Below, piece by piece: positions 1 to 35,290 of a stretch of 64,000 bases of DNA (position 1 is the stretch's first letter; every line of letters begins with the position of its first letter). The translations under genes and the position numbers were made by a program. The stretch lies in IMG/VR virus record IMGVR_UViG_3300034759_000219. One strand, 5' to 3'. A model generated the notes under the pieces. It was not told the origin of the DNA. It saw only the letters and a list, made by a program, of their open reading frames with translations, and ran no database searches. This DNA is from an uncultured virus (IMG/VR IMGVR_UViG_3300034759_000219). Its lineage: Duplodnaviria; Heunggongvirae; Uroviricota; Caudoviricetes.

Positions 1-644
1 GTGATTATAGATTCAACTTCACTAACAATTTGGTCTATCTCATTTGAAATATCTTGGTCTGTGCTTAAAGTTATGTCATCTGCGTATCTAGTGTATACAA
101 ATCCATGTTTTTGGCAGTATTCACTAAGCGCCAAATCGTACTTTTTAAACGCTATATTAGACGCTACAGGGCTTGTTATAGCACCTTGTGGGAGTCTACC
201 TTTGTGTGCAACTAATCTTGCAACAAGCCATGCGCCCATCTCATTCCAACCTTCGGCTTTGAGAGCATTCAAAACTTGGTCACTACGTGTAGACGGGAAA
301 AAGTCTCGTATATCTAACGAGATAAGATACCTTTTACCCGCATGTTTAAGTGCACAAGTCTTAATTGTCTCGTTTTTGCGAAATCCAAATACCATCTCTG
401 GAAGTGGAATTTCATCTAACAAGTCTTTAAGTTTGCGATGTACAGTTTTAAGCAGTTTAGAATACTCTACGAGCTTTTCGTCCGCTTGATCTTTAGAATC
501 GCACAGGTACATATTTATCTCACGCTTTTTGCCGTTATGCTTTTGAACATAAAAATCTGTATACAATTTGCCATGAATTTTCTCTAAATAAGTAAGCGTC
601 CGAACTGGTATACCAACTTTAAAGCTTATATCTTCCAAAGTCAT
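1..644 (-). CDS. Retron-like reverse transcriptase (runs off the left edge of the window)
   Basis: Manual minus-strand translation from ATG 644: MTLEDISFKV...GFRKNETIKTCALKHAGKRYLISLDIRDFFPS...GRLPQGAITSPVASNI...FVYTRYADDITLS. Contains RT motifs DxxDFFPS, LPQGAxTSP and YADD, plus a retron-like xAxxH. Absent from the ORF track because its stop is outside the window. Confidence 0.92.
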   Translation of the reverse strand, partial: MTLEDISFKVGIPVRTLTYLEKIHGKLYTDFYVQKHNGKKREINMYLCDSKDQADEKLVEYSKLLKTVHRKLKDLLDEIPLPEMVFGFRKNETIKTCALKHAGKRYLISLDIRDFFPSTRSDQVLNALKAEGWNEMGAWLVARLVAHKGRLPQGAITSPVASNIAFKKYDLALSEYCQKHGFVYTRYADDITLSTDQDISNEIDQIVSEVESII

Positions 645-3388: not shown

Positions 3389-3532
3389 GTGAACCGCTCA
3401 TGACTGAAGTCACGAGCTTCCTGCTTCACAGACAAGACTTGCTACCAGTGACGTACCACCGATAGTAGAGGTCTTGCCTCCACAGGCATCGCCTTCCGGC
3501 TCGGACCGTCCCAGCCCTACGGGTCGCCAACG
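3389..3532 (-). mobile_element. Orphan IS200/IS605 (TnpB-type) right end / reRNA scaffold
   Basis: Minus strand GTAGGGCTGGGACGGTCCGAG...GCCTGTGGAG...GAAGCAGGAAGCTCGTGACTTCAGTCATGAGCGGTTCAC resembles tnpB 3' ends. No tnpB ORF is present. Confidence 0.65.
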
Positions 3533-3562
3533 CACAAGGTATACTCTCTCATGCACAACACC

Positions 3563-8293: not shown

Positions 8294-8555
8294 GTGACCT
8301 CCTCCCACCCACTTCAGGGGTGGGCTTCCCCTTTCACCGAGGAAAGCTTATGCGGATATAGGGGTTACTCCCCAGCACCCGCACGGCGGCTTCTCTCTCC
8401 AGGGGCTTGAGTTCGGACCGGTCCAGCCCTACGGCCTGATCAGGGCTCAGGCCAAGCCCTTTCCTCAAAATCACAAGTGCAGCGTTCACGTCCCTGTCGC
8501 TCTCCCAGCCACACTCACATTCAATTACCCTCTCCGACAGTAAACATCCCAACAC
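8294..8555 (-). mobile_element. TnpB C-terminal fragment plus IS605-type right end
   Basis: CECGWESDRDVNAALVIL (TnpB zinc ribbon/RuvC-III), followed by the GAAGCCCACCCCTGAAGTGGGTGGGAGGAGGTCAC end hairpin. Confidence 0.8.
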
Positions 8556-11115: not shown

Positions 11116-11401
11116 ACCCTCCTTTCTAGTTGCCCCATCGGTGGGCCCAGCTTCCTGCCGAGGGTTTGCAGGAGCCAGGACTCAATGCATGCAGAGCCTT
11201 TTGCACACATTGAGCTGCCGTCGCGGTAACGGCACCACCCATTGGCGGCTTCACCCCTCCAAGAACAGAGGGCTCGAAGGCGCCGCCGGGGCTTCACAGA
11301 CCTTAGTGACGGTTTTGTGTCTTGCACAAGAAAGGAGGGGTGTAGGGCAAAAATCTCAGGCTTTAGGTACTCTGCGGATAACTTGGGGTACTACCTCTCT
11401 C

Positions 11402-11617
11402 CACACAACCTATACATGTACTTGTACAAGGCCAGGAACATGTGATGACCTTTTTTGCTTTTTCTTTTCACACAACCTATACATGTACTTGTACTTGTAC
11501 CAGTACCTATACCTATGCTTGTACCGGTACCTATACCTATACTTGTACTCGTACCTATACATGTACCTACACATGCACCTGTGCTTGTACCAGTACCTAC
11601 ACATGTACTTGTACGCA
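11402..11617. repeat. 26-bp direct repeat plus 23 degenerate hexamers (consensus TACNNN)
   Basis: CACACAACCTATACATGTACTTGTAC at 11402 and 11469. Hexamer phase TACATG TACTTG TACCAG TACCTA... runs from 11480 to 11617. Confidence 0.85.
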
Positions 11618-11656
11618 GTGACAGGCGAACTGGTGTTGTACTTAATTAACGGGCAG

Positions 11657-17833: not shown

Positions 17834-18654
17834 ACAATGAAGAAACAAGCCAGCCAAATTTGGCATTAACTGCAGTTTCGTTGCCATTGAGATTTTTTGG
17901 ATATTTTCTAAAAGAAAAGGCATATATAAGCATATAGACAGCGCCATAGTTTGGGCTGTTTGACCAATTTAACCCACTTGGTTCACGGGGCTTAAGGCTT
18001 GCATAGTGGTCTCAAAGGCGTGCACTTGAAGCAGGAAAGCCAAGGAGCATAATTACAAGTGCAATACATGGTATAAACAGGCTTACATTTGACCCAAAAT
18101 TTTCTAAAGCTGTTTAGAACCAGATGAAGTTAAGAAAACTTGTTAAAGGCTACATCAAAGGTGGTAAAGACGTAACTAACCTGTTTGATATTGGTGTACT
18201 ACGGTTTTCAGATTAGCTTAAAAGCTATTTTAAGGTATCAGATGAGGTGCTTAAAAAAGCTACAGGCACAAATGTCATACTAAAACAATTTTTTGTAGCA
18301 CCAGCTCGCGGATTTAGAGTTTAGACATAGCCAATGTACCATATTGGAAAACTGTTTTAGTAGTATGAACTATAGAGTTTCTATGGGTTTTTAGGCCAAC
18401 TTGCGATTGGCCTTGGTACGTAGGTATATCATGGATTTAAGAACCTTGGTGTGAGGTACAAGTATCTACAGTACCAAAGACACGTGTAGTCTAACGCGAT
18501 GCGGCTTTCAACTGTAGGCAGGCAGAATGTGACGGCAGAAGAGCAGATGTACCTACAATAGTAGTTTGTCTAGCTTGGCAATGTGACAAATGAATAGTAG
18601 ATGTTGCGTGAAAACCCGTATTAGAACTATTACTATATGGGAGTGAATTCATGA
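17830..18654 (+). CDS. Hypothetical protein, TAG-recoded
   Basis: GTGA and ATGA coupling at its two ends. Confidence 0.6.
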
Positions 18655-20324
18655 AAAGCAAAGACTAGCAAAAGGCAAAAGTGATTGCCAAGATAGACTA
18701 CGAACCGTGTGAAATATGCTAGAAATGCATCTTAACCCACGTCTTCGATAAAGGCTTGAAGTTTGATATACAATGTAAGCCGATAAGTGCACAGGAGTAT
18801 GACAAGCTTATCAACGAATCGAATGAGCTTGTTAAGATAGCTAGATTTGCACCGTAGTTTGTAGAGTATGTATTGAATTTACAGCCTAGGGGCTTTCAAC
18901 ACGAATAGCTTGTATGCAATTCCAAGCGTAAAGTACTGAGACTACCAAGAAAAGCAGGTAAGACATGGCTTATGGCTATGCATATACTATACGAAGCGTT
19001 TACAAACGAACACTACAGAATACTCGTAGCTGGTCCGAGGCAAAACCATATAGCTGAAATCTTTGACAGGTTAAATGATTTTGTATCCAGCTCGGAAATT
19101 TTGCAAGAATCTGTTGTAAGACAATCTAACACATTTGGCAAATTTTACAAATCCAATCCATTTGAGCTGAGGTTCAAAAATGGCTCAATTGTAAAAGGCT
19201 TCACAGCTGGATAGGACGCAGATGCTGTGTCTATACGTGGTCAATCTGCAGATTTTATAGTTTTAGACGAGCTAGATTACATGCTTCCAAGCCAAGTAGA
19301 CAGTATAATTGCCATATTGAACACGAACAAAAACTCGAAGCTTATATAGTAGTCTACACCATCTGGACGCAGAGATCACTTTTACAAATGGTGTAACTAG
19401 CCACACTTTAAAGAATTTCACCTGAAATACCAAGAGCTTGAGATATACGATGAGCGACAAGATAAGGAATACCAAAACTCAATGTCCTAGGACAGGTATT
19501 AGCGTGAAGTCTTAGCAGAGTTCATAAGCCAAGAGTCTGGTGTGTATAGGAACGAACTTATAGACCAATAGCTAGACGAATACAACTTTGACGGCTTAAA
19601 CGCAATTCAAGGCTGTAGGTACTAGATTGGTGTAGATTGGAATGAAAGTAATGCAGGTGTGTATGTCGTTGTAGCTAGACTTGAGTATACGCCAGACGCA
19701 GATTACAAAGTGCGTATAAGCAATATCATTCATATACCACCACATGAATTTACACAGGTAAAAGCTGTAGAGTAGATAGCAAAGTAGTGTAACTAGTACA
19801 AGCCTGATTATTTAATACCAGACGAAGGGTTTGGAAATATGCAAATACAAGTCTTAAAACAGATGTAGGATGCAGGTTAGATACCTATTATGCAAGACAG
19901 AATTGTACCTGTAAATTTTGGTTAGAACATACTTGTCTTTGATTAGATAACCAAACACAGGCAAGAGACAAAGTAGAAGCCGTTCTTGGTTTCTAATTCG
20001 GTTAGAATGCTAGAAAATGGCAAGTTGATACTACCTGCGTCTGAAGATACACCAGATAAGTTAGTTGGCATAATGCGGTCCTACCAGTTTATAGGTGTTA
20101 CAGAGAATGGCATACCAAAATACACAAAAGGCAACACACACGTACTTGAATAGATGCTTTTATAGCTTTACGGCATATATCTTACGCTCAATTCACAACC
20201 TTTAGCTACTATTCCAACCTTTTCTGCTCCAACTGGCGTATACATTTCAAGACCTGTAGGATACGAACCAACCAAGAATCGGTACTTTGAAAGGCGAGGT
20301 GTACGGTCTTGGAAGAGATTTTGA
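18651..20324 (+). CDS. terL: Terminase large subunit, TAG-recoded
   Basis: PRKAGKT (Walker A), IRGQSADFIVLDELD (Walker B), LI**STPSG, REVLAEF, IGVDW, HVLE*MLL*L. Confidence 0.9.
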
Positions 20325-26287: not shown

Positions 26288-27036
26288 TCGCAAAGTACAA
26301 AGCGCTGAAAAGGCCAATGCGCGTATTTGCAGAAGGAAAGGTTATAGGTGGCGGAATCAATCTTAAACCAGCTCCATACCTGCCAATTGTTGAAGTTACA
26401 CCAGATACACAACCAGTCGTTATAAAGAAAGGTACATTTGTAACACTTGATTAGAATGGCTTCGTTATACCAGCATATCCTTCTCAAAAATAGCTTACAT
26501 ACTCAGCTGTTGATGTACAATTTGGCGTTATAAACATCGACACTGGCGAACCAGTTCAAGCAGCTGGTACATCTACCTAGACGATCTCTGGCAAACCAAT
26601 AGGAATCGCATTGTATGACTATTTTCTAAACCTGCCTTAGTTCCAAGCAGATTACAACATTCAGCCTGAAGTTGGTATATTAACCGAAGGCTTGATCTTA
26701 CTCGCACTTGACAGTGCTCATTCAAGTGTCCAATACAAACCAGGCGATGTACTAGAACTCGACTCTGCAGGTTTCCCAGTCCCAGTTGCATAGCTTAATG
26801 TGACAGTTGACGAATCTGGAAGTGCCACACATGAAATCAAACTTGATGCGTCTAATTTTGTCGGTAAGCTTGTCAGAGTAATCGATGCCACAGATTAGTC
26901 ACTTGGCTGGACTGGCGGGTATGAACTTGTCGCACCAGCATCTGGCTTAGACCTGCCTGGTATTGAAAATGGCGGTATACTTGATGGCATAGACGAGACC
27001 ACAAAGAAAGGCTTACTAATCAAGCTCGGCTTCTGA
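26284..27036 (+). CDS. Probable head decoration / structural protein, TAG-recoded
   Basis: Lies between protease and capsid; open with TAGs; ends in TGA. Confidence 0.6.
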
Positions 27037-27050
27037 TGGGAGGGTCATTG

Positions 27051-28265
27051 ATGATTAACATACCTGAACTCGAAAAGATGGTTGAATACACAGTAGAAAA
27101 GATTTTGTACTCTGAAAATGCAGATTTCCTGCCTTTGCAGAAGGACAAGATCAAGGAATCACTATAGCGAGACAGCAAGCTCAAACTCTTAAAACAAGTT
27201 ATGAACAACAATGGCTACGTAGACAGATACTCTGCAAATTCTGCAGAAGATGCAGGTAGAATTGAGCTGAAAGACTTGGTTACATCGCCAGAATTCAAAG
27301 TACTGTTTCCAAAGGTTATAACAGACCTCGCACTTGAGACACTTGAACCAGCTTTGGTCTTGCAGAATATGCTTGAAACTATACAGTTCAAAGGCTCAGT
27401 TGCAACAATACCTGTCTTCTCAGGCTTTGGTGGCAACCTTGATATCCCAGAAGGCGGAGAACCACCTGTATTCAATGTAAAAGTTGGTGCATTCGAACAA
27501 GTAGTCATCGGCAAATCTGGTGTCATGGTTGAACTTACAGAAGAGACAATCAGATACAGCGCATATGACATCTTCAATATCCACGTTAAAGAAGCACTTA
27601 AGGCACTTGCAAGATGGAAAGAATACAAAGTTGCTAAGATGATCACAGGCAATGCAAGTGAAGAAATCGACGGTGGTACCGGAAAAGACATTTCTGGTGC
27701 AGACAATGGCGGTCTTACATTGTTTGACATCATGGAAGCAGCCACAAAGCTTATAAACAAAGGCTTCAATCCAGACGTCATAATCATGAACCCACTTGCA
27801 TATCCAGTCTTTATGTATAATGGTACACTCACAGCTATGTTCTATGCATTCGGTCAAGGCTCACTTGCAAACTGGCCTGCTCTTGCAAAGATAGCTAATG
27901 CTGAATTCTACAATAAAGTCGCTGGCAATAACATATCTGGCATCTCACTACCAGCTGGCGTATTTGGTAAAGGGCTCAGTATAGTACTGTCTCCATTCAT
28001 GCCATTCACACCAGCAAGTGACCAGACACCAGCTAAGACTGACATAATAGTAGCCGACTCGTCCGCACTTGGTTACCTTGTTGTAGACCAACTGCCAACA
28101 ACAGATGAGTTTGCAGATCCAATTAGAGAAATCAGGAAATTTAAGATTGTAGAAAGGTATTCAGTTGTACCTAAAGCAAAAGGTGCAGGTATCGCAAAGA
28201 TCAAGAACGTCAATGTTGTGAAGACATTCGATCCAATTCCATTCTACCAGATTCAACCACAATGA
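27051..28265 (+). CDS. Major capsid protein (404 aa) with a single TAG at codon 39
   Basis: RBS GGGAGGG before TTG/ATG 27048/27051, in frame with track ORF 27201. One TAG at 27165-27167. Capsid-like motifs IPEGGE and DVIIMNP. Confidence 0.85.
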
Positions 28266-33895: not shown

Positions 33896-33926
33896 ATACA
33901 CCACTCCAGCACAACCTTGACTAACA

Positions 33927-33950
33927 ACAAAAAGGGTCCAAAAGGACCCT
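33927..33950 (-). terminator. Intrinsic terminator after the suppressor tRNA
   Basis: AGGGTCC-TTTT-GGACCCT followed by a T-run on the minus strand. Confidence 0.75.
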
Positions 33951-33954
33951 CGGC

Positions 33955-34030
33955 TGGTGGAGCGGATGGGATTTGAACCCACAACCCACGATTTTAGAGA
34001 CCGTCGCTCTCCCGCTTGAGCTACCGCCCC
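33955..34030 (-). tRNA. Amber-decoding tRNA-Ala(CUA)
   Basis: GGGGCGG TA GCTC AAGCGGGA GAGC G ACGGT CTCTAAA ATCGT GGGTT GTGGG TTCAAAT CCCAT CCGCTCC ACCA. 76 nt, anticodon CTA (33995-33997), G3:U70 (34028/33961), A73, encoded CCA. Confidence 0.96.
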
Positions 34031-34129
34031 ACGCTTGTTTTCACCATGCTTTCACCTCCTGTCGCTTCAAAGACTAACACCGCTATAAACACTTAAATTG
34101 GCTTGGTTAGTCGCATCTGAGGTGGTTTG

Positions 34130-35290
34130 GTGAAGCTACTAGACACTTCTGCGTTCATTGCTAATGAGTTTGAAGATCTTTCCAATTGTGTTACTACTTA
34201 CCATGTAATTGAAGAATTAGACAGGCTGAAAGAAGTGAAAAGGGTAGCACGCAGGTAGAGACATGCTATTAACAAGATAATTGAATCTGGTATGTACATA
34301 ATACAAAACAATTAGGCATGCGCAGACGATTCGCTGATTACTTAGTAGAGCACAAACACCGAGTTTGAAATAGTCACGTAGGATTCAGCTCTATACCTTA
34401 GGTAGAAAGCGCTCGGTTTGAACTAGACATTAGTACACGAAACATTACCAAATTGGCTATTTGACCCAATTCCAACGATAGAAGTCCAAGAGAATTTATC
34501 TGGCAAGTCGATGCCTATGCAATATGAAAGTGAACTTGAAGGCAAATATGTGTTACTTACAAACTGCGGCTAGTCGCGTATTGCAGTTTTAAGGGAGCAA
34601 AAAGCACACTTTGTGAACCCAAAGTCATTTTCAATTGGCGATACTAAGATTCAATAGCTAGACCTACAGCAGAAGATACTTCAGGCGTAGATTGAAGATG
34701 CTAGCATAGAGCTCGTAACATAGATTGGCACTGCAGGCTGTGGCAAAACATTTCTGTAGCTTTAGGTCTAGGCAAAGCTTGTTATGGAAGGCAAGTACAG
34801 TAATATACTGGTTTAGGTCCCACCAGTTCAACTTGGTGGTACTGACAGGTATGGATTTCTGCCAGGTACAATTGAAGAAAAGACAATCCAGCAGATGTCT
34901 GGTATCGTTGACAACATACATGTTATATTTGGACCTGCAGAAGGCGCAAGAATGGTACGCGAATAGATGGGCTCACAGACGTCGATTATACAATTGCAGT
35001 AGTTTTCCAATATACGCGGCAGATCGCTCAATAACACAATTGTAATCGTAGATGAATAGCAAAATATGTCTGTCCTAGAAGCAAAGGCATTTCTAACTAG
35101 GATAGGCGAAAACTCGAAGATAATACTCTTAGGTGACATAGAGCAGATAGACACAGGCATGAATGGCATAGAAACAAACGGCTTAATTTAGACGTAGATT
35201 TAGTTTAAGACAGAAAAGATGTAGCAACACGTATGTCTCAAAAAGTGTTACAGGAGCGATATCTAGCGCGTATAGGCTGAGAAGCTTTGA
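34130..35290 (+). CDS. phoH: PhoH-family PIN + ATPase protein, TAG-recoded
   Basis: LLDTS...VIEELD...*RHA...ADD...LR*KALG...GTAGCGKTFL*L*V*...GFLPG..EEK...IRGRS...DE*QN...LTRIGENSKIILLGD..QID. Confidence 0.92.

Follow-up and report, generated by a model that had tools for sequence, protein, structure and literature searches.

In a 64,000-nt stretch of DNA from an uncultured virus of the Caudoviricetes (IMG/VR record IMGVR_UViG_3300034759_000219), called here the window, we found an alanine-type tRNA gene with a CUA anticodon that is preceded, on its own strand, by a strong Shine-Dalgarno (SD) sequence and a start codon. The reading frame opened by that start runs into the body of the tRNA. 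Our tentative reading is that this is a real ribosome site on the precursor of a suppressor tRNA, where translation would compete with tRNA folding and with RNase P. The features of the locus are given below; L005 and L007 are two related loci from metagenomes.

34127..35290, plus strand: gene of a PhoH-like ATPase, divergent from the tRNA, with 24 in-frame TAG codons
34106..34114, plus strand: GTTAGTCGC, the mirror copy of the GTTAGTC motif, facing the PhoH-like gene
34090..34098, minus strand: conserved block ATTTAAGTG, between both inverted GTTAGTC copies
34072..34078, minus strand: GTTAGTC on the tRNA side, within the conserved block TGTTAGTCTTT
34051..34062, minus strand: conserved block ACAGGAGGTGAA containing the SD, identical in L005 and L007
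34060-34053, minus strand: SD sequence AGGAGGTG, 11 nt after GTTAGTC (34078-34072)
34047-34045, minus strand: start codon ATG, after a 5-nt spacer from the SD AGGAGGTG
34021..34047, minus strand: short ORF from ATG 34047 to TAG 34023-34021; eight codons, then UAG at tRNA nt 8-10
33994..34020, minus strand: extension of that ORF, LKRESDGL, if UAG is read as sense; ends at TAA 33996-33994
33955..34030, minus strand: alanine-type tRNA(CUA) with CCA encoded (ARAGORN; Rfam RF00005)
33932..33951, minus strand: intrinsic-terminator-like hairpin and T run, directly after the tRNA
33919..33925, minus strand: further GTTAGTC just past the terminator, followed by GGAGTGGTG, an ATG and the next minus-strand ORF
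18651-20324: further TAG-bearing ORF

The tRNA was recognized by ARAGORN, with the anticodon CTA at position 34, and by Rfam RF00005, which scored it at 63.8 bits (gathering score, 29). The alanine identity set of tRNAs is G3:U70 with A73, and both the acceptor-stem pair G3:U70 and the discriminator A73 are present in the window tRNA and in all six of its metagenome relatives. A U at position -1 favors RNase P cleavage; it was found in seven of seven CUA tRNAs (the window and the six relatives). Because the terminator-like hairpin and the T run come directly after it, the tRNA appears to be a unit of its own. A gathering-score Rfam scan of the whole window returned two tRNAs only and no ribozyme family match. 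We also considered a tmRNA, which has an alanine-type tRNA-like domain and an internal tag ORF with no SD or start; it was ruled out, as ARAGORN reports a plain 76-nt tRNA and the ORF lies upstream with an SD and an ATG.

The canonical SD match covers 9 nt (AGGAGGTGA, 34060-34052, minus strand); the SD stands 22 nt and the start codon 17 nt before the tRNA. The leader frame translates as MVKTSVGR*LKRESDGL*. With G1 at 34030, the in-frame TAG corresponds to U8-A9-G10 of the tRNA, the TAA corresponds to U35-A36 of the anticodon plus A37, and the RNase P junction (T34031/G34030) falls within leader codon 6. The first-pass annotation of this DNA had read GTTAGTC, a strong SD, ATG 34047 and MVKTSVGR-TAG-LKRESDGL-TAA from the minus strand, and all of these sequence statements are correct. 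Its placement of the TAG inside the 5' part of the tRNA and of the TAA over the anticodon is confirmed by the tRNA that ARAGORN and Rfam delimit at 34030-33955. The remaining two frames are open across the entire tRNA and terminator, and one of them continues into the frame of the next gene.

In predicted folds, the SD is accessible, with a mean unpaired probability of 0.60 in the window and 0.77 in L005. The minimum free energy structure contained the cloverleaf and the terminator only, and no alternative structure pairing the leader with the tRNA appeared in the folds. The leader is identical in sequencing run X5, and the contigs from four sequencing runs were near-identical copies or unrelated tRNAs. 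In run X20, one low-depth contig (depth 2.3) carries A>G at 34031 on the plus strand, which changes tRNA base -1 from U to C and leader codon 6 from GTG to GCG.

The coding content of the window shows the extent of TAG use. Under the standard code, ORFs of at least 150 codons amount to 4004 aa, versus 23228 aa when TAG is taken as a sense codon; the names assigned by PHROGs are terminase, portal, major head protein, tail sheath, endolysin-like protein, and PhoH-like ATPase. Homologues that use the standard code, 108 in number (P0045-P0152), were aligned with the PhoH-like protein; the 12 nearest matches were omitted as possibly coming from recoded relatives. In this alignment, Ala was the top residue in 11 of the 24 TAG columns, with a summed share of 0.307 (8.2 times background) against 0.004 for Gln. 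The TAG column in Walker B holds Ala in 95 of 108 homologues, and another TAG column holds it in 108 of 108. For the large terminase, we used 88 homologues of at most 720 residues from P0162-P0302, with P0187 omitted, and 20 of 22 TAG columns were usable; the shares were 0.21 for Ala (3.5 times background), 0.124 for Ser, and 0.024 for Gln. When the PhoH orthologues from the window, L005, and L008 (another of the metagenome loci) were compared, the residue facing TAG was Ala in 16 cases, Val in 8, Ser in 6, and Gln in 4.

Composition was assessed over 22 plus-strand ORFs comprising 13649 codons, in which TAG accounts for 4.57%, GCN for 5.43%, and CAA plus CAG for 4.89%. Read as alanine, TAG brings the proteins to an ordinary 10% Ala, whereas read as glutamine it yields 9.5% Gln and 5.4% Ala. 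Genetic code 15, in which TAG encodes Gln, was rejected, as the Gln shares in the TAG columns (0.004 and 0.024) are below background. The alanine-type acceptor stem of the tRNA and these alignments point to TAG being alanine, not glutamine, in this phage. Avoidance of the G-C step, considered as a cause of TAG = Ala, is not seen in the window, where the GC dinucleotide has an odds ratio of 1.19-1.28. The literature searched yielded no case of TAG read as alanine in phages; only Gln or an unknown residue was given. The stored gene call for the PhoH-like protein has Q at 23 of 23 TAG codons. Gene callers that assume TAG = Gln would thus mistranslate this phage, and the change to Ala affects some 4.6% of all residues encoded by the 22 ORFs counted.

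Two further observations concern the recoded codon and its tRNA. The major head protein gene (27036-28265) has one TAG in 410 codons (0.2%) and 8.5% GCN; this most highly expressed structural gene largely shuns the recoded codon, compared with the average of 4.57% TAG in the 22 ORFs. In Aeromonas phage Akh-2, a cultured T5-like phage, an annotated tRNA-Sup-CTA (L002, MK318083.1 64060-64131) is 81.6% identical to the window tRNA, encodes no CCA, and shows G3:T70 and A73 by eye. Because the Akh-2 tRNA carries these alanine determinants, alanine-type amber suppressors may also occur in phages that are not known as recoded.

The tRNA and the PhoH-like gene are separated by 96 nt, which contain two inverted copies of GTTAGTC (34112-34106 and 34078-34072) placed 27 nt apart both in the window and in L005. 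The motif was counted 15 times in the window, against 8.9 +/- 2.9 expected. In eight of these 15 cases, an ORF of at least 100 codons starts 11-31 nt downstream of the motif, compared with 4.9% for random positions (binomial P 1.7e-7). The 15 sites, among them 3236-3230 (minus strand), 16869, 34106, 35307, 46528, 54337, and 60704, are co-oriented with the local genes. Additionally, copies stand directly after the terminators of both window tRNAs, ahead of the SD of the next gene. The motif probably serves this phage as a promoter or as a restart signal. If it acts as such a gene-start signal, the SD at 34060 would lie inside the 5' leader of the tRNA transcript; the transcript start is taken here from the motif alone, because a sigma-70 scan at the locus gave no promoter.

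The 9-mer AGGAGGTGA was found twice in the window against 0.28 expected, a count reached in 5 of 100 shuffles, and its second copy heads a 197-codon ORF. The shorter AGGAGG precedes the start of an ORF of at least 50 codons at 17 of 26 sites in the window. For comparison with other tRNAs, we scored GGAGG in the 60 nt ahead of each tRNA, provided that a start codon came 4-10 nt after it. From 33 tRNAs in 90 sources, only those of the window, L005, and L007 have such a site, and none of the 30 others does (0/30).

A metagenome scan for alanine-type CUA tRNAs yielded six loci (L004-L009), which represent four contexts in addition to that of the window. The upstream region is identical in L005 and L007, and their PhoH protein, also encoded divergently from the tRNA, is 55% identical to that of the window. 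When the intergenic regions of the window and L005/L007 were compared, the spacers were unalike, but four blocks were identical (GCGACTAAC, ATTTAAGTG, TGTTAGTCTTT, and ACAGGAGGTGAA). The last of these, the 12-nt block with the SD, is the longest conserved intergenic block. Ahead of it lies an indel of 10 nt, equal to one helical turn. Downstream of it there is no alignment, and the SD-to-tRNA distance is 32 nt in L005/L007 versus 22 nt in the window. Their start codon is a GTG located 6 nt after AGGAGGTG; it precedes the tRNA by 26 nt, which is 9 nt more than the 17 nt of the window. The resulting frame, VRTLSRRLVGP*LNRESG*, again places TAG at tRNA nt 8-10; the leader is 10 nt longer, and the sequence of the leader peptide is not conserved.

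The chance that two unrelated 60-nt stretches have a 12-mer in common is about 1e-4 by our estimate, which argues that the SD block is under constraint. That both leaders should have their start at 5-6 nt and share its frame has a chance on the order of a few percent, and no lower (about 0.13 squared times 1/3), an estimate that draws on a single independent comparison, the window against L005/L007. Together with the counts given above, the kept block makes the SD and start more than chance.

The other loci lack the site. In L008, the PhoH protein is 40% identical to that of the window and is encoded divergently from the tRNA; the tRNA differs from that of L005 at two positions and has the same terminator and downstream gene. 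The 250-nt upstream region of L008 contains no SD or start near the tRNA, and a weak likeness to the part ATTTAAGTG..GTGTT is found about 90 nt upstream of it. In L004/L009 and L006, which also hold alanine-type CUA tRNAs, no SD was found on the tRNA strand within 120 nt. As the neighbor of the tRNA, the PhoH-like gene is conserved in L005/L007 and L008 as well as in the window. The first-pass annotation had proposed conservation of the SD, start, and frame in related phages as a check, and the outcome is mixed: all three are kept in L005/L007, with the identical block and a GTG as start, and the SD and start are missing from L008, L004/L009, and L006. The ribosome site therefore seems to be kept within one deeply diverged module and not to be a general companion of this tRNA type. 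Because L008 has nearly the same tRNA with neither SD nor start, the leader appears dispensable for a working tRNA.

The same loci also differ in where their sequences part. L005 and L007 have the upstream region, tRNA, and terminator in common and part immediately past the terminator, whereas L005 and L008 have the tRNA, terminator, and downstream region in common and diverge upstream from the first base of the tRNA. Judged by these breakpoints, the tRNA borders look like recombination junctions, and the tRNA with its terminator resembles a mosaic module.

Further searches added few relatives. The exact 5' half of the tRNA and looser tRNA patterns gave no match in viral contigs; the loosest pattern there returned one CUA tRNA (L001), which is unrelated, lies in a tRNA cluster, and was rejected. 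The tRNA pattern had no match in genome contigs, and a three-block pattern of the divergent control region had none in viral contigs or genome contigs. A single-query search with PhoH confirmed no relative, and the PhoH alignment search gave 80 IMG/VR loci with four tRNAs, none of the suppressor type (0). The major capsid protein search gave one distant locus (34% identity), which has no tRNA and was set aside; among protein sequences, relatives of the capsid protein were found at 99%, 80% (P0002), and 78% (P0003) identity, and relatives of the PhoH protein (P0034-P0044) at 36-43%. The cultured-phage collection matched the tRNA itself only, in Aeromonas and Xanthomonas phages.

In the reading that we tentatively favor, the suppressor tRNA gene would be a stand-alone transcription unit, closed by its own terminator and built on the cassette that the phage uses for protein genes, namely GTTAGTC, a strong SD, and a start codon. 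The SD and start would form a genuine ribosome-binding site in the 5' leader of the pre-tRNA, open to ribosomes and kept by selection. Once loaded there, ribosomes would translate a few unconstrained codons and then enter the tRNA body; they probably run into unprocessed tRNA. They would halt at the UAG of nt 8-10, or at the UAA of nt 35-37 once UAG is read as alanine. A ribosome on the RNA would keep the acceptor stem and D arm from forming and RNase P from cutting between -1 and +1. A ribosome starting at 34047 would cover the RNase P junction from the outset, and at the UAG it would also cover the 5' strand of the acceptor stem and the D arm; because of this coverage, ribosome loading and tRNA maturation would be mutually exclusive on each molecule. 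Initiation would then tune the amount of suppressor, most likely by lowering or delaying maturation, and the in-frame amber would be a by-product of tRNA architecture that adds at most a small extra delay. We counted in favor of this competition the quality of AGGAGGTGA, the placement of GTTAGTC, the block and frame in L005/L007, the unpaired SD, the rarity of the arrangement, and the U at -1. Counted against it were the single comparison, the loci without a leader (L008, L004/L009, and L006), the indel of one helical turn, and the negative sigma-70 scan.

It is possible, although we find it more doubtful, that the motif, SD, and start belong to the PhoH and divergent-promoter module, to which the tRNA and terminator were joined by recombination. 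The SD block would then be kept for the DNA site of a regulator, or owing to recent exchange, and its translation would have no consequence for the tRNA. The mosaic junctions at the tRNA borders (after the terminator in L005/L007, at the first tRNA base in L005/L008) are consistent with such a history, and L008 manages with no leader. A second GTTAGTC-SD-ATG cassette follows the terminator, as if duplicated around an inserted tRNA. Because the indel ahead of the SD block, at 10 nt, has the length of a helical turn, a binding site at the DNA level instead of a ribosome site is possible. However, a protein-binding DNA site is unlikely to take the form of a perfect 9-nt SD that lies on the strand of the tRNA and is followed, in each of the two lineages, by a start at the optimal distance. 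The spacers around the SD block are randomized, so the block is hardly a neutral relic, and the estimate of about 1e-4 for a common 12-mer in two 60-nt stretches argues in the same direction.

A role as a 5' stabilizer is unlikely in our judgment. Here the SD-like element would bind 30S subunits and shield the precursor from 5'-end-dependent decay until the RNase P cut, and the start codon would be incidental. The model for such an element is STAB-SD, the 5' stabilizer of the Bacillus thuringiensis cryIIIA mRNA; like STAB-SD, the window has a strong SD-like sequence, near the presumed RNA 5' end, that does not head a protein gene. The SD would lie within about 10-15 nt of that 5' end (motif-to-SD distance, 11 nt) and is predicted to be unpaired, and the leader peptide is not conserved, all of which would suit a stabilizer. 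Unlike STAB-SD, the window element has a start codon at optimal distance in both lineages and the RNA downstream is a tRNA. The start at 5-6 nt would be superfluous to shielding, and a structured tRNA that is quickly cut by RNase P would hardly need it.

The first-pass annotation had proposed a suppression-dependent feedback, in which the in-frame UAG is a sensor and the tRNA limits its own maturation via read-through; we consider this improbable. In the absence of suppressor, RF1 would end translation at nt 8-10, whereas in its presence ribosomes would reach the anticodon and unfold more of the precursor. The leader site and frame that the proposal relies on are kept in L005/L007, and the UAG-meeting frame is found in both leader-bearing lineages despite start distances of 17 and 26 nt. 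After the UAG, both frames also end within 7-9 codons inside the tRNA, at TAA in the window and at TGA in L005. Nevertheless, the amber and the TAA are dictated by tRNA structure. U8, A9 or G9, and G10 are near-universal in tRNAs, and an amber suppressor with A37 always has UAA at 35-37. Because U8-A9-G10 and U35-A36-A37 lie 27 nt apart with the D loop of this tRNA, TAG and TAA fall in one frame. The free element would be the frame of the start alone, a 1-in-3 chance, and the TAG-meeting frame occurs in two of two leaders. The co-occurrence of TAG and TAA in one frame, which the tRNA forces, does not go beyond chance; the SD block itself appears to do so.

Selection for the least intrusion into the tRNA, or for the earliest stop, would pick the same frame as amber sensing, with no sensing involved. 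Moreover, a ribosome at nt 8-10 would already lie over the 5' strand of the acceptor stem and the D arm, and read-through of another 27 nt would add little. The leader ORF ends at 33994, at least 43 nt short of the terminator stem, which starts at 33951. Because the ORF stops short of the terminator and no alternative fold is predicted, we see no sign that the depth of read-through alters the fate of the tRNA; L008, for its part, has no leader at all. That the SD-like word and the start codon merely arose by accident between genes is highly improbable: 9 of the 26 AGGAGG sites in the window have no long ORF after them, but the block is kept in a lineage with 55% PhoH identity, such a site is absent from the 30 other tRNAs (0/30), and the 9-mer occurs 2 times against 0.28 expected.

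Elsewhere in the window (8560-8520, minus strand, with 8300-8540 and 3430-3560), a second AGGAGGTG with an ATG opens an ORF of only eight codons and is followed by a GC-rich stretch. This stretch has a segment, cgtagggctgg..ggtccga, in common with the region upstream of the tRNA-Ser; possibly it is a structured RNA that goes with the reverse transcriptase. The stretch 1452-1763 contains direct repeats, five copies of about 30 nt at a spacing of 65-67 nt, which resemble a small CRISPR array and adjoin a fragment of a reverse-transcriptase gene (3-644, minus strand; Pfam RVT_1). Units like ACCTATACTTGT, repeated in tandem every 12 nt, occupy 11396-11630, just upstream of a 1624-codon ORF that begins at about 11677.

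Several known systems resemble parts of this arrangement. Leader-peptide attenuation in trp and his, and the autoregulation of RF2 (prfB) at an in-frame stop codon, likewise use a short leader ORF with a ribosome-binding site, and that ORF holds a codon whose decoding depends on the regulated product. Unlike trp and his attenuation, the window leader is overlapped by no terminator or antiterminator fold. It further differs from both attenuation and prfB in that the regulated product would be the very RNA being translated and that the "sensor" codon is imposed by tRNA structure. The bldA gene of Streptomyces encodes a tRNA-Leu(UAA) that reads a rare sense codon; as with bldA, one specialized tRNA would gate a late gene set through its timed accumulation. 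To our knowledge, bldA has no leader ORF.

Recoded phages, among them crAss-like and Lak phages, carry suppressor tRNAs and, in the accessible text of the reports, read TAG as Gln under "code 15" (PMC9523058, PMC11210395). As in the code-15 phages of those texts, the window places a phage tRNA(CUA) beside TAG-rich late genes that need a suppressor. The window differs from them in its alanine-type tRNA, in TAG columns that align with Ala, and in the ribosome-binding site and start that precede the tRNA. Theta ribozymes, which are HDV-like, adjoin suppressor tRNAs in recoded gut phages, and within the accessible part of that report they are the nearest published cis element proposed to control suppressor maturation (PMC10879173). 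Going by that part, the two cases share a cis element on the suppressor precursor that is proposed to control maturation and thereby the code switch; the window element, in contrast, consists of a 5' ribosome-binding site and a short ORF and matches no ribozyme family in Rfam. The literature searched describes no ribosome-binding site with a start (SD) on a pre-tRNA leader.

What triggers the code switch in recoded phages is posed as a question in the same accessible text (PMC10879173). An improbable answer for this phage is that its leader ORF serves as a dedicated sensor of the switch, with the depth to which the ORF is read reporting how much alanine-inserting suppressor is active and thereby setting the maturation of further precursors; if true, the switch from the standard code to TAG = Ala would be autoregulated by a tRNA that is briefly also an mRNA. 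The competition that we tentatively prefer would, if true, make the conserved ribosome-binding site on the suppressor pre-tRNA a new and simple control point, at which translation is set against tRNA maturation.
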